A stretch of DNA of 64,000 bases from Candidatus Eiseniibacteriota bacterium (GTDB taxonomy: Bacteria > Eisenbacteria > RBG-16-71-46 > CAIMUX01 > VGJL01), in the NCBI GenBank assembly GCA_963792585.1, contig CAWBWI010000006.1:224001-288000 (forward strand), in the 5' to 3' direction. Positions 42,985 through 48,546 of this stretch are shown piece after piece. The position numbers were made by a program, and so were the translations under genes. Within the stretch, counting starts at the first letter, position 1. Every line of letters starts with the position of its first letter. The notes beneath the pieces are model-generated. The model was not told the DNA's origin. It did no database searches and worked only from the letters and a program-made list of their open reading frames with translations.

Positions 42985-45483
42985 TCAACGCAGAACAGCA
43001 TCCCTCCCATCGATGGGCACGCGCCCGTCGGCGTCGAAGAACCCCGCGGCCCGCACCGCCCCCCATCCCAACCGGCGCGCATCGGCGTCGTAGACAATGA
43101 AGTCGGGGAAGCCGGAGCCCGAGTAGCAGGGATTCGATGCGGCCGCCAGCTCGAGCGCGGCCCGGTCGGTTCCGGCGACGACCTCGATGAGGCGCCCCGG
43201 GGCGCGCGGATTCGGGTAGGCGAATCGGGCCGCCATCGAACCTGCGTAGATGCGGCCCGCCAGCGCGACCCCGTCCCGCGCGATGCGGATCGGAAGATCG
43301 CCCGCGATCTTGCGAAGGACCGCGTGCCCGCCGGGGGTCGCATAGAGGATCAGGTTGCGCTCCGCCAGGATCTCCGGCGTCACCGCCGTGTCGGGCAGAA
43401 CGGGCGCGTAGCCGTCCGCGCGGAGATACCACGCCTGCGCGTCGAGCACCGCGAGGCGCCGCGCCGCATCGTTCTCTTCCGGGGAACCGCCCGTCTCGTA
43501 CACATAGGTGAAGGGAGCAAAGTAGGGATCCTTGATCGATGCCCTTCGCGCGGCGGGCGGAGGAGCGTTCGCCGGCTTCCAGCTCTTCGCTTCCTTGCGC
43601 AGGCGCAGGGAACCCTCGCGCCAGACGACCGACAGGCGGTCACCGTCGATTTCGATCGAGACCTGCCCGGGGGCAACGAGTCCGGCTGGTTCGAGCACGA
43701 TCGCGCGCGCCCCCTCGGTGGTGATCCGGATGTCGCCCGCGCTCATGAGGAGCGCATCGACCGCGACGCGATCGAAGGGATGCTCCGCTTCCTCGACGGT
43801 GAGCCAGTGGGAACGACGGCACGTTCCCAGATCGAAACTGCGAAGCGCCACCGCACGCGGCAGAGGATCGCGCCGCCATCCGCGCAAGGAGTCCATCATC
43901 GCCGGCAGATCGACGCAGTCGACCCCGGGCGTGCCCGGGTCATCCCACCAGTGACCCATTTCGGGAACCTCGCGGTATGTGACGCTCGCCCCCTCCTCGC
44001 GCGCGCGCGCCGCGAGCCAGCGACCTTGAAAGACCGGAACGTTGTCGTCCTTCGCCCCATGCAGGACGAAGACAGGCGTCGCGCGCAGATTCGCCATCAG
44101 CGGGATCGGGTTGTCCGGCGCGAGCGCGCGCTGCACGAGGGCGAGCAGCCGGGGGTCGGCCCCGTTGATGTCCCGCCGCAACGTGAACGGCACATAGCTC
44201 GAGAAGGTCGCCCACCCGGCGCTCGGCGCCAGCCCCGCAAAACGGTCCGCATGCGCGGTCCCGACGTGCCATGTCCCGTGCCCCCCCATCGAGTGGCCCG
44301 CGAGGAGAACCCGGTCGGGGTCGATCGGGTGGCGCGCAAGGATCTCATCGAGGGTGGCGATCGCATTGCGCCGCCCCCAGTCCTGCCAGTCGAATCCGTA
44401 AGGACGCGTGTTGGTCGGCGCGACGACGAAGGCCCAATCCTTCGGAGCGTAGGAGGCGACCTGCGGCTCCGGATCGCAACTCGCCCCGTGCAGGGACAGC
44501 ACGACCGCGAAGGGTCCCGGGCCGTCCACGGACGGCGGAAGGAGCCCGTACTTCTGGACCGAACCGTCCTCGCGCGAACGGAAGGTCTCGATCCGCGTCG
44601 CGCGGGGCTCACGGACCCGCAAGGAACAAGCGAAGGCGACCTCGCCGTGTGGGACGTCGAGGACGATCTGTTCGGGACATCGTTCGCCCGCGACCGGGGG
44701 ACGCAGCGTCCGTACGGGGAAAGGGAGTTTCAGGATCGCCTCGGGCTCGAGCGGAGGGATGGGGACCGAAGTAGCGGCAATCCGATCCCCGTCGCCGAAT
44801 CGCAGGACCCCACCCACGAGTTGCGATCCCGATAGATTGGCGATCGGGACGGCCGCCCAACCATCGAGCGGCTCCCCCGCGACCAGATCGGGCATCGTGA
44901 TGTCCCTGCCGAACACGACGAGCGGCGCATCCTCCGCGACCATCCGGAAGCGGACCTCCCGCGGTCCCATCCCGCCGACGCGCAGCGCCACCCGATGGCG
45001 CCCCGCCTCCAGCACGGCGGGCGTGACGAACGGGGAAGCCGCCGCGTAGGGGTTGCCGACGTACCTGCGCGCGTCGATCGTGAAGCTGCCGACGCCGAGC
45101 GCGTCGATCAGGTAACCTCCCGTGCGCGGCACGTCGATCTCCCCGAGCAGGAGCCCCGCGCTGACGACCCCGGCTGCCCCCCAAGATTCGCTCAGGGCGT
45201 CCCAGTCCGTTCCTTCGTATGCGAGCGGGATTCGATCGCGATCGGGCGCAATCCGGATCCAGCGGGCCCATCCGCCGGGAGCGAGCATGCTCGGCATCGA
45301 ATCACCGAGGCTCGGGTTCGCGTTCGCGGGATCGAGCGGCCAGAGGGGATCCGCAAGCGGCTCGCGCGACCCGGCCGGAAATGGACCGATCCCCATCCAG
45401 GTCTCGACCCGAAGAGTGTCGCGCGGTGATGTCACGGCGAGTGACGCAAGAAACAACGCTCCCACGAGCCCGACTCCGGCCAT
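42985..45483 (-). CDS. Secreted multidomain alpha/beta-hydrolase (S9 peptidase/esterase-like)
   Basis: SLHGA, GHSMGG nucleophile, HGAKDDNVP, MGHWW triad positions. Confidence 0.82.
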   Translation of the reverse strand: MAGVGLVGALFLASLAVTSPRDTLRVETWMGIGPFPAGSREPLADPLWPLDPANANPSLGDSMPSMLAPGGWARWIRIAPDRDRIPLAYEGTDWDALSESWGAAGVVSAGLLLGEIDVPRTGGYLIDALGVGSFTIDARRYVGNPYAAASPFVTPAVLEAGRHRVALRVGGMGPREVRFRMVAEDAPLVVFGRDITMPDLVAGEPLDGWAAVPIANLSGSQLVGGVLRFGDGDRIAATSVPIPPLEPEAILKLPFPVRTLRPPVAGERCPEQIVLDVPHGEVAFACSLRVREPRATRIETFRSREDGSVQKYGLLPPSVDGPGPFAVVLSLHGASCDPEPQVASYAPKDWAFVVAPTNTRPYGFDWQDWGRRNAIATLDEILARHPIDPDRVLLAGHSMGGHGTWHVGTAHADRFAGLAPSAGWATFSSYVPFTLRRDINGADPRLLALVQRALAPDNPIPLMANLRATPVFVLHGAKDDNVPVFQGRWLAARAREEGASVTYREVPEMGHWWDDPGTPGVDCVDLPAMMDSLRGWRRDPLPRAVALRSFDLGTCRRSHWLTVEEAEHPFDRVAVDALLMSAGDIRITTEGARAIVLEPAGLVAPGQVSIEIDGDRLSVVWREGSLRLRKEAKSWKPANAPPPAARRASIKDPYFAPFTYVYETGGSPEENDAARRLAVLDAQAWYLRADGYAPVLPDTAVTPEILAERNLILYATPGGHAVLRKIAGDLPIRIARDGVALAGRIYAGSMAARFAYPNPRAPGRLIEVVAGTDRAALELAAASNPCYSGSGFPDFIVYDADARRLGWGAVRAAGFFDADGRVPIDGRDAVLR

Positions 45484-45546
45484 GAACCCCTCCCCCTCTG
45501 TTGGAGACCCACCCCTCGCCGCAGAAGACCCGCTCGCTGGATACGG

Positions 45547-46326
45547 CTAGGAGTTCGGCGGGCTCCGCCGCACCAGCGTCGCGGAGGCCTGCGCCTCGGG
45601 AAGCAGCAGCACCTCGGCCACGTTGACGTGCGCCGGGCGGGTCGCAACGAAGAGGACTGCGTCGGCGACGTCGGCGCCCGTGAGCGGCATCATCCCGTTG
45701 TAGACCTTCTTCGCCCGCTCCTCGTCACCGTGGAAGCGGACGAGGCTGAACTCGGTTTCCACGAGACCGGGATCGACCGTGCTGACGCGAATCGGCGTAT
45801 CGACCGTGTCCATCCGGAGCCCTGCGGTCAACAACCGCACCGCCGCCTTGGAGGCGCAGTAGACGTTCCCCCCCGGATACGCCTCCCGGCCGGCGATCGA
45901 GCCGATGTTGATGATCTGCCCGCGCCCGCGCCGCACCATTCCCGGCAGGACCGCACGCGTGACGTAGAGCAAGCCCTTCACATTCGTGTCGATCATCTCC
46001 TCCCAGTCGTCCAGGAGGCCCTCGTGCAGCTTGTCGAGTCCGCGGCTGAGTCCGGCATTGTTCAGGAGGATGTCGATCTCCTCCCACTCGGGAGGCAGCG
46101 AGCTCACGGCGAGGTCGACGGAGGGTTGATCGCGCACATCGAGCGTCAGGAGATGGATGGGAACCCCCGTCTCACTGGCGATCTGCGCGGCGACGGTCTC
46201 GAGCCGGTCCAATCTGCGCGCGGCCAGCAGCAGCGACGCGCCCTGTGAGGCAAAAGCGCGCGCGCACGCCTCCCCGATCCCGCTGCTCGCGCCGGTGACG
46301 AAGACGATCTTACCGTCGAGTCTCAT
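45547..46326 (-). CDS. SDR family oxidoreductase (YdfG-like)
   Basis: TGASSGIG, NNAG, YCASK, DPGLVETEFS motifs. Confidence 0.93.
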   Translation of the reverse strand: MRLDGKIVFVTGASSGIGEACARAFASQGASLLLAARRLDRLETVAAQIASETGVPIHLLTLDVRDQPSVDLAVSSLPPEWEEIDILLNNAGLSRGLDKLHEGLLDDWEEMIDTNVKGLLYVTRAVLPGMVRRGRGQIINIGSIAGREAYPGGNVYCASKAAVRLLTAGLRMDTVDTPIRVSTVDPGLVETEFSLVRFHGDEERAKKVYNGMMPLTGADVADAVLFVATRPAHVNVAEVLLLPEAQASATLVRRSPPNS

Positions 46327-46360
46327 CGAATATCCCTTCTGGTTCGGATCCGGCACCAGA

Positions 46361-46900
46361 CTAGCGGGCCGGCGTCACGGCGTCCAGGATGGCGGCTCGG
46401 ATCCAGGGCCAGTGCGCGTGGTCGCCGGCGAAGCGCGCCTCGCGGCGAGCCCGGATCTCCCCACGGGCGTCCACGGTGAAGGTCCCGCCGAGCTGGCGCG
46501 GATCGCTGTCGACGTGGGTTTGCCGGAAGCCGCGCCGCAGCGCGCGGAAGGCAGCAACGAAGACGGGCGGTCCGATCAACCCGTACGGGCCCGCCCGCCG
46601 GGTCCTAAGCGCGCGGTAGAGTTCGCGCTCGCCGTCCACGAGGAGCAGGTACGGCAGATCCATCGATTGGGTGAGCGCCCGCGCCGTCTCCACGCTTCCC
46701 ATGCCGACGGCGATCGCCTGGGCGCCGAGGGATCTGATCTCGTCATGATGGTCGCGCAACTGCGCGAGGGCCTCCCGGCAGAAGATTCAGCCGAAATGGC
46801 GCAGCAGGACGAGCACCGTGGCCGGATGCGACGCGATGAGCGAGTGCAGGCGCGGCACCGAGCCGTCGCCCGCAGGCAGGGAAAGATCCGGGACTCGCAT
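46361..46900 (-). CDS. Selenocysteine-containing peroxiredoxin-like protein (AhpC/TSA_2, SelU/SelL-like; UxxC)
   Basis: ATG 46900 with GGAGGAGG SD reads MRVPDLSLPAGDG..VLVLLRHFG-TGA-IFCREALAQLRDHHDEI, continuing in frame into the 132-aa ORF (QLGGTF motif); TGA at 46787-46789. Confidence 0.88.
46752..46767 (-). other. Candidate bacterial SECIS hairpin
   Basis: UCGCGC-AGUU-GCGCGA begins 19 nt after the UGA; G in the apical loop. Confidence 0.6.
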
Positions 46901-46917
46901 GGGCCTCCTCCATGGAG

Positions 46918-47376
46918 CTAGATCCTGCGCCGCGAGAGGCGCACGGAGGCCAGCGCCAGGCACGCCGTGCCGAGCAGACCCATCGCGGCGAGCTGCATGA
47001 CCGGGATGGGGAACCCACCGATCGATACAAGCGCCTGCGGCAGTCCTCCCACCGCATCAAGAATGGGTGGGAGCGCGAAGATCGTGCCGATCCCAAGGGC
47101 CGACGCGGCGACGGGTGCCGCGATCGCGGTTCCGCGGATCCCCCACCTTTTGTCCGCGCGCCGACGCTCTCGGCCATCCGTCCAGGCGAGGTAGGCGACG
47201 CGGGCCGCGAAACCGGGCGGGGCCTGCCCGCGTTCGGACATCGCGCTACGCATAGCGACGGCTGCGCGCAGCGCGGCGCCGCAGCTTCGGCAGGTCGACG
47301 CATGCGGATCGCGGAGCGCATCCTCCCCGGCATGATCGAGTTGGGCGAGAAAGCGGGCGCAGGCCGGATCGGTCAT
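46918..47376 (-). CDS. Putative ZAS-type membrane anti-sigma factor
   Basis: N-terminal C..HASTCRSC (HxxxCxxC), two C-terminal TMs; ATGA overlap with the sigma gene. Confidence 0.75.
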   Translation of the reverse strand: MTDPACARFLAQLDHAGEDALRDPHASTCRSCGAALRAAVAMRSAMSERGQAPPGFAARVAYLAWTDGRERRRADKRWGIRGTAIAAPVAASALGIGTIFALPPILDAVGGLPQALVSIGGFPIPVMQLAAMGLLGTACLALASVRLSRRRI

Positions 47377-47954
47377 CGTTCCTCCTCCTGCATGACGGTA
47401 CGCACCTTCCTTCGCGCCCGAAAGAGCCGGATCCGGACCGCCCCCGCGCTCCCCCCGATCGCGCGAGCGACCTCAGCAGCGCTCATCCCTTCCTGATCGT
47501 GGAGGATCAGGGCGAGTCGGTCGGCCTCCCCGAGCCGGCCAAGCGCATCGGCGAGACGCACCGCGGTTCTCCGCTGTTCTCTCGCAATCTCGGGCGACGG
47601 GGCGGGATCGAGAATTCGCGCATCCTCCGGATTCCCGGTCTCCTCCGCCAACCCCACCCGCTCGGGCGCGCGCCGCAAGCGCCGGTGGCGATCGATCAGG
47701 AGATTGCGCATGATGCGGAAGAGCCAGGTCCCGAACAGGGCGTCGCCCCGAAATCGGCCGATCTGGGCGAACGCCCTCAGGAACGCCTCCTGCGCGAGAT
47801 CTTCGACGTCCTCCGCGGGCACGCAACGCCGCAGGACGGCAAAGACCCGATCCTGATGGAGCCGGACCAGCTCTTCCATCGCCTCCCGCCGCCCGTCGCG
47901 GGCCCCCGCGAGGAGCGCCCTCTCGATCCCGGCATCGGACTCGGTTCTCTCCAA
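47373..47954 (-). CDS. ECF RNA polymerase sigma factor
   Basis: EDLAQEAFLRAF..FGTWLFRI region 2; VRIRLFRAR region 4; start placed at TTG 47954 (GAGGGG SD, downstream of the promoter motif). Confidence 0.9.
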   Translation of the reverse strand: MERTESDAGIERALLAGARDGRREAMEELVRLHQDRVFAVLRRCVPAEDVEDLAQEAFLRAFAQIGRFRGDALFGTWLFRIMRNLLIDRHRRLRRAPERVGLAEETGNPEDARILDPAPSPEIAREQRRTAVRLADALGRLGEADRLALILHDQEGMSAAEVARAIGGSAGAVRIRLFRARRKVRTVMQEEER

Positions 47955-47976
47955 GTTCCCCCTCGTCTTCGCCTTG

Positions 47977-48029
47977 GACGCCGCCGGAGGCGCCGCGTTA
48001 CACCGTAACACTCCCGGGCCGGGGGCGTC
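47977..48029. promoter_or_regulatory. Two back-to-back divergent ECF promoters, GTAAC-N16-CGTC
   Basis: Minus: TGTAAC(48002-47997)-N16-CGTC(47980-47977). Plus: CGTAAC(48004-48009)-N16-CGTC(48026-48029). Confidence 0.8.
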
Positions 48030-48075
48030 CGAAAGGGTGGACCGGCGATTGGGCCGGCCGGAGAGGAGTCCGGAC

Positions 48076-48546
48076 ATGCTAGGATTCGATCTGTTCGATG
48101 CCATGGGTGCGAGCATTGGAGGCGCGATCCAAATGATGATCGGCTACGCCTGGGTGCTGATTCCGCTCGCGGGAATCGTCTGGTTCATCGTCAACGGCCT
48201 GGCCGAAGAGAAGACCGCGAGGCTCAACCGCGAGCTTCTCCATCGAGAGCGACTCGTGGCGATGGAGAAGGGGATGACCGAGGTCCTCGAGCGATCGGTG
48301 GCCACGGAATCGATCGCATCGGGCCGCGATTCGAACGGCCTCCTGACCGGAGGGATCATCACCCTCGGAGTCGGGATCGGCCTGAGCTTGTTCCTCCAGA
48401 TCGCCGTGGACGGCAACGATCGCAGGCAGGCCGTAGCCGTGGGCCTGATTCCAATCTTCGTAGGTCTGTCCCTGATCGCCGCCTGGCTCGTGACCCGCCG
48501 CCTGGGTCGCAACGGCACCTTCAAGGAGCCGAGAGGGAGTGCATAA
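48076..48546 (+). CDS. DUF6249-like small membrane protein
   Basis: HRERLVAMEKG, GIITLGVGIGL, GLIPIFVG pattern; GAGGAG SD. Confidence 0.72.
   Translation: MLGFDLFDAMGASIGGAIQMMIGYAWVLIPLAGIVWFIVNGLAEEKTARLNRELLHRERLVAMEKGMTEVLERSVATESIASGRDSNGLLTGGIITLGVGIGLSLFLQIAVDGNDRRQAVAVGLIPIFVGLSLIAAWLVTRRLGRNGTFKEPRGSA

Follow-up and report, generated by a model that had tools for sequence, protein, structure and literature searches.

A gene on the minus strand of a 64,000-nt stretch of a Candidatus Eiseniibacteriota genome (contig CAWBWI010000006.1, positions 224,001 to 288,000; hereafter the window) contains one in-frame TGA that is predicted to be decoded as selenocysteine (Sec), giving a 179-aa selenoprotein, with a probability that we put at about 0.94. 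The first-pass annotation had proposed such a redox selenoprotein, and the proposal is supported by the alternation of Cys and TGA in one column of the homologs, by the Sec genes of the organism, by a covarying hairpin and by the predicted fold. The frame has 179 codons, from ATG 46900 to TAG 46363-46361, with its single TGA at 46789-46787 (codon 38). The first 37 codons end in VLVLLRHFG and are followed by the TGA and then by IFCREALAQLR, with the frame unbroken to the TAG; the TGA sits at the first Cys position of the motif R-H-F-G-x-I-F-C. All the elements described earlier were found in the sequence as described: the strong Shine-Dalgarno and ATG 46900 that open the frame, its passage without a shift into a 132-aa ORF, the perfect hairpin UCGCGC-AGUU-GCGCGA (46767-46752) 19 nt after the TGA, and the truncation by the ORF caller, since the mechanical ORF list holds only the 132-aa piece from TTG 46759. 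The features of the gene are as follows.

46904..46911, minus strand: Shine-Dalgarno GGAGGAGG, seen in the sequence, 6 nt from the end of its GGAGG core to the ATG
46361..46900, minus strand: predicted selenoprotein gene, 179 aa, U38-I-F-C41, thioredoxin fold, AhpC-TSA_2 / PRXL2-like
46787..46789, minus strand: in-frame TGA, putative selenocysteine 38, aligned with Cys44 of human PRXL2B
46778..46780, minus strand: Cys41 (TGC), second residue of UxxC, invariant across 91 aligned sequences
46752..46767, minus strand: SECIS-type (bacterial) hairpin, 6-bp stem, AGUU loop 25 nt after the UGA, -9.4 kcal/mol
46361..46759, minus strand: truncated 132-aa ORF as called by gene finders under table 11, starting at a TTG within the hairpin loop

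The read-through protein was aligned to 110 loci from class-level and GTDB-wide searches, residues 38-41 being covered in 102. Eight loci whose match missed these residues were left out of the column count, as were 12 loci of other Prx types: the 11 class-level x-T-P-G-U matches, which are BCP-type selenoproteins outside the RHxG family, and L031, another Prx-like type. Among the 90 R-H-x-G loci, codon 38 is TGC/TGT in 75 and TGA in 15 (the window's copy included), with nothing else at this position, which is the Cys-or-Sec column that had been predicted. At least 120 more TGA loci, nearly all homologous downstream of the pattern, were recovered by a DNA-pattern search of metagenomes. In the 91-sequence alignment R34, H35, G37, position 38 and C41 are invariant, for R, H and G partly through the selection of hits. 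In a tree of 90 sequences (one frameshifted row left out, midpoint root, weak deep support) the Sec and Cys forms are intermingled; the tree needs about 15 changes, where shuffling gives a mean of 30, and this suggests repeated switching between Sec and Cys. An independent genome from the same order (G128, L014) has the same TGA with an identical hairpin, in a protein that is 51% identical. Of 5 other genomes in the same family, only one yielded the gene in the homolog search, there with a large in-frame deletion. This sole same-family homolog (L021/L267; G014:C22:68846-69202) keeps the TGA and has lost about 55 residues just after C-R-E-A, the hairpin among them; it could be a decaying gene or an assembly collapse.

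On the minus strand, the hairpin consists of TCGCGC (46767-46762), AGTT (46761-46758) and GCGCGA (46757-46752). By energy alone it is unremarkable: the folding energy is not significant over 90 nt (z = 0.24) or 60 nt (z = 0.19), and the 31-nt fold has a z of -1.72 (10 of 200 shuffles). When the segment was synonymously recoded 5000 times with the codon usage of the genome, 244 recodings had six of six pairs and 35 had these together with the AGTT loop. PMC13188914 gives the bacterial SECIS (bSECIS) model as a loop of 3-9 nt, a stem of 4-16 bp, a G at loop position 1-2, a distance of 16-37 nt from the UGA and an energy of -7.5 kcal/mol or lower. The expectation of a SECIS just 3' of the UGA agrees with this model as implemented in our own script, used in place of bSECISearch itself (loop 4, stem 6, G at position 2, spacing 25, -9.4 kcal/mol).

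It is through conservation and covariation in the TGA homologs, and not through energy, that the hairpin stands out from chance. Among the matches listed, six of six stem pairs are formed in 77 of 124 TGA homologs vs 3 of 74 Cys homologs, the loop is AGTT in 100 vs 4, and the bSECIS model is satisfied in 101 vs 8, counts that overstate independence because the sequences are related and many TGA matches belong to one RHYG clade. Gln-Leu is written as CAG-TTG in 97 of 98 TGA forms (again among the matches listed) vs 2 of 9 Cys forms. The two sets were gathered differently, the TGA set with a DNA pattern that did not contain the hairpin and the Cys set with a peptide pattern, and the structure tested across the homologs was taken from one of those sequences. 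Excluded from the counts are the window's own copy, two short entries, two duplicates and 7 loci (6 TGA, 1 Cys) that are only weakly similar downstream. After dereplication of the TGA sequences from the matches listed, 81 remain; in these, 83.1% of cells are paired and all 6 pairs have two-sided changes (UGGCCC/GGGCCG and CGGUGC/GCACCG, for example). Covariation is 0.377 vs 0.167 for shuffled alignments, none of 500 shuffles attaining the observed value, and slid partners give 0.152 at most. The alignment illustrates clearly how a SECIS can be embedded in a coding sequence, with CAG-TTG for Gln-Leu. An Rfam scan of 45500-48200 with E up to 1 matched nothing.

The exact-register hairpin is absent in 29 of the 124 TGA homologs among the matches listed, and 23 fail the looser model too. 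Some of the off-register forms have a hairpin 8-9 nt nearer the UGA and a few have none in our own test. In ten loci (L156, L175, L183, L194, L196, L204, L210, L221, L230 and L241) the AGUU hairpin at +25 is missing, but a loop with a G in it lies at +16 or +17; the RHxG family thus appears to have a second SECIS register.

There is a slim chance that the TGA is a real stop, which would leave either a nonsense pseudogene or a 37-aa peptide and a 132-aa protein re-initiated at TTG 46759. This TTG lies inside the hairpin loop, in the same frame as the 179-codon reading, and has 11 nt upstream a Shine-Dalgarno-like GGGAGG (46776-46771), overlooked in the first-pass annotation, which speaks for re-initiation. 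However, GGGAGG stems from Arg-Glu codons, where homologs usually have CGC/CGT-GAG; it partly explains the false TTG start and probably contributes to its choice by gene callers. Termination would also fit the protein collection, in which this protein (P0002) and five relatives (72-91% identity) are stored solely as C-terminal pieces of 132-137 aa, and the decayed-looking copy in the same-family genome points the same way. Yet the 132-aa piece has neither the active site (U38/C41) nor the fold's central strand 27-32, the hairpin covaries, and more than 120 diverse loci have the TGA exactly at the Cys column and an unbroken frame beyond it. The stored pieces of the five close relatives, which come from independent assemblies, begin at or just past the same place, and the same collection stores three more remote relatives, which have Cys, at full length (180-191 aa). 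With the TGA read as Sec, a systematic annotation error is corrected, the protein and its five close relatives having been stored without the active site, and an uncultured lineage is indicated to use selenocysteine. The annotation correction is sound and holds no new mechanism.

Bacterial Sec decoding through SelB and a SECIS hairpin is an established pathway, and the organism had been expected to possess it. Its genome (5.4 Mb, 84% complete) has all four genes: a profile search found selA (486.9 bits), selB (320.9 bits) and selD (386.7 bits), all above curated cut-offs, and the tRNA-Sec (selC; 96 nt, at C1:683832) is the sole tRNA with a TCA anticodon. The selD gene itself contains an in-frame TGA (CAG-U-AAK), and a separate hairpin comes after it. 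Across genomes, selA was found in 12 of the 14 that carry the TGA form (the two where it was missed are 56% and 76% complete) and in 18 of the 36 that carry the Cys form. A reading of UGA as Trp, Gly or Cys, by a genome-wide code change or leaky suppression, is very improbable. Low-level UGA read-through by tRNA-Trp is established, but neither Trp nor Gly occurs at the column in any of the 90 RHxG loci, and the only tRNA with the matching anticodon is the tRNA-Sec. Because TGA is still the commonest stop of the genome (983 of 1797 long coding-like ORFs), the recoding would be site-specific and the code unchanged.

An assembly or sequencing error for TGC/TGT is barely conceivable: although the locus comes from a single assembly and the codon-38 base is not shown among the relative-contig differences listed (40 of 294), the TGA with its hairpin recurs in the same-order genome and in many unrelated loci, the five independently assembled relatives begin at or just after the same place, and the Leu codon of the loop, TTG, is the choice of TGA homologs. 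Read runs were searched for words of the stretch; none held half of them, the best share being 0.24.

The read-through protein matches Pfam AhpC-TSA (PF00578; 46.4 vs a gathering score of 26 bits) and AhpC-TSA_2 (PF13911; 49.6 vs 27), the PF00578 match rising from 26.8 to 46.4 bits with the read-through. AlphaFold2, run on the 91-sequence alignment, predicts one thioredoxin-fold domain (pLDDT 96.8, pTM 0.92), in which strand 27-32 is followed by helix 39-50 and residue 38 opens the helix, so that UxxC stands at the start of the active-site helix. Its best NCBIfam match is NF040769, a SelL-related redox protein (E 6.5e-34, profile positions 7-172 of 173), which all 91 aligned homologs match as well. 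The score is 117.1 bits with C for U and 108.1 with the stop read through, vs a cut-off of 120, and since the cut-off was missed by 2.9 bits the protein was filed under the broader Prx-like UxxC class. Selenoprotein L is ruled out on motif, codon 41 being TGC: there is one Sec here (UxxC), whereas animal SelL has UxxU. The earlier description "UxxC peroxiredoxin-like" stands for the UxxC and the fold, and is to be taken as likeness in fold only. A true peroxiredoxin (BCP/PrxQ, AhpC) was ruled out, since the PxxxT/SxxC motif is absent; residues 31-38 contain neither Pro nor Thr, and the PrxQ profile scores 15.5 vs a cut-off of 260. The protein is probably cytoplasmic, because no signal peptide is evident by eye.

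If Sec is inserted, the protein is almost certainly a redox enzyme. SelB-GTP-Sec-tRNA would bind the AGUU-capped hairpin 25 nt downstream and Sec would enter at codon 38. By analogy with PRXL2B, the selenolate at the start of helix 39-50 would attack the O-O bond of an organic peroxide or the S-S bond of a protein disulfide; Cys41 would resolve the intermediate with formation of a Se-S bond, which a thioredoxin/NADPH system would re-reduce. On this analogy, we give even odds to an organic peroxide, rather than a protein disulfide, as the main substrate.

The neighboring genes of the window are as follows.

45547..46326, minus strand: short-chain dehydrogenase (SDR), ATG 34 nt past the selenoprotein stop; best NCBIfam match YdfG, under its cut-off
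46918..47376, minus strand: gene for a 152-aa protein that is hydrophobic in its C-terminal half and matches no family significantly, stop 17 nt before the selenoprotein ATG
47373..48116, minus strand: ECF-type sigma-70 factor (family match), stop overlapping the next start (ATGA), start not fixed
47974-48546, plus strand: DUF6249 membrane-protein gene (ORF list, family match), divergent from the ECF sigma gene

The listed DUF6249 and ECF sigma ORFs overlap at their 5' ends, so their true starts would be further in. By its position only, the 152-aa gene is a probable anti-sigma factor. The ECF sigma gene, the 152-aa gene, the selenoprotein gene and the SDR gene form a tight run (gaps of -4, 17 and 34 nt), which suggests co-transcription and stress control; the selenoprotein gene probably shares a transcript with the ECF sigma gene pair and the SDR gene, and its product would act as a stress-response reductase. 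This arrangement is kept in a close relative, in which one contig (X3 record 17) extends across the whole run with 151 of 2701 letters different. Codon 38 is also covered by X6 record 29 and by X13 record 14 (46731-46920), the latter an RNA-library contig, which is no proof of transcription. A conserved operon was rejected: in flanks of 300-3000 nt among the matches listed, the SDR was found at 6, the sigma factor at 1 and the anti-sigma factor at 0 of 198 loci. A scan of 45300-48300 revealed no sigma-70 promoter and one terminator-like site, at chance level. Three TGA forms (L106, L162 and L199) are fused to a C-terminal short-chain dehydrogenase, a different SDR, with 466-472 aa downstream of the TGA; the fusion in L106 was confirmed by Pfam.

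The adjacent SDR gene, the fusion of three homologs to an SDR and the invariance of the active-site Arg have led us to consider whether the RH[FY]G-U-x-x-C proteins correspond in bacteria to PRXL2B, as dedicated Se-dependent reductases for organic endo-/hydroperoxides in an SDR pathway. In this lineage, the pair would be under the control of its own ECF sigma factor. We regard this as unlikely. If true, it would give the selenoprotein family a defined substrate class and provide a simple model for the eukaryotic enzymes.

A rough scan of the genome for coding-like TGA followed by a hairpin gave 37 candidates, this gene included, and 20 of the others were scanned for families. By family and motif, 4 of the 20 match known selenoprotein types and are likely selenoproteins of those types: a BCP-type peroxiredoxin (TPG-U, TxxU; C1:1644338, plus), a TlpA-like protein (T-U-G-P-C, UxxC; C3:1081711, minus), a rhodanese (C-S-U, CxU; C4:299833, plus) and a UshA-like protein (P-C-G-U; C1:1373758, minus). 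Five candidates have no family match at the TGA. Two are secreted-looking, one with V-L-U-G-Y-C (UxxC; C6:900851, minus, L265) and one with G-G-C-G-U about 5.5 kb from selD (C6:198400, plus, L263); another is secreted and propeller-like, with C-A-T-U (CxxU; C3:452022, plus, L257). The remaining two have W-P-Y-T-U upstream of a redoxin domain (C2:244034, minus, L254) and Y-T-U-G-G-P in a small protein that is HesB-like by eye (C3:350819, minus, L258). In the same class, many genomes (L023-L042, family f12) carry BCP-type N-G/A-T/S-P-G-TGA genes for a TxxU peroxiredoxin selenoprotein, which are likely truncated by gene callers as well.

Outside the window, a gene similar to cobalamin-independent methionine synthase (MetE-like, PF01717, 383 aa; G000:C5:179139-180287, minus; L262, L269) has an in-frame TGA at residue 216, in R-T-F-M-U-A-T, about 37 residues upstream of an intact H-V-C. 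At this site, 8 of 20 covered loci (the one here and 7 from genomes in the same family or order) have TGA and 12 have Cys. All 8 TGA forms have a conserved hairpin with its loop from 18 nt downstream (-7.8 to -12.1 kcal/mol), and none of the 12 Cys forms passes -7.5. The family is absent from Table 1 of PMC13188914 in the portion available, and the literature listings, as far as their available text goes, gave no description of a MetE-like selenoprotein. With its conserved TGA/Cys pair and own hairpin, this gene is the more promising lead.

Among known systems, true peroxiredoxins (BCP/PrxQ, including Sec TxxU forms) share the fold family, and BCP structures rank next after PRXL2B. The present protein differs from them in having no PxxxT/SxxC, and the genome has a separate TPG-U gene of BCP type. 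Human PRXL2B (FAM213B, prostamide/prostaglandin F synthase; PDB 9us9, 9usa) is the best PDB match by sequence (E 1.9e-4), and 9usa is the top structural match (E 2.7e-11, TM 0.73/0.80), ahead of BCP peroxiredoxins and ResA. Its L-R-R-F-G-C-V-V-C is aligned to L-R-H-F-G-U-I-F-C, so that R34, H35, U38 and C41 correspond to Arg40, Arg41, Cys44 and Cys47. The identity is about 21%, PRXL2B has Cys and not Sec, and His35 replaces its Arg41. According to PMC12938796, the CXXC motif of PRXL2B reduces the PGH2 endoperoxide, and these four residues are linked to endoperoxide reduction. The likeness to the eukaryotic PRXL2/FAM213 (SelU) family is one of sequence and fold alone, and there are no grounds for assuming that the bacterial protein acts on a prostaglandin.

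Closest in kind are the Prx-like UxxC selenoproteins (GOS 'Prx-like 1-3'), which share with this protein PF00578 over the cut-off, UxxC, a single UGA and a downstream SECIS. Table 1 of PMC13188914 gives a Prx-like thiol:disulfide oxidoreductase (PF00578, UxxC/UxxU) as a high-confidence predicted selenoprotein family and also contains a cd02970 UxxS family; the same Prx-like and cd02970 families are given in PMC9312934. Already in 2008, Dataset S1 of PMC2398784 ('homologs of known selenoproteins'), in the portion available, held four RHLGU and two RHFGU sequences, one of its sequences being closely like L076 by eye. The RH[FL]GU / Prx-like UxxC kind was therefore catalogued before, and the present copy gives no special handle on the biochemical function of the family. 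Judged on these shared features rather than on a comparison with a representative sequence, it has no difference in kind from the Prx-like UxxC selenoproteins and is another copy of them, in another lineage.
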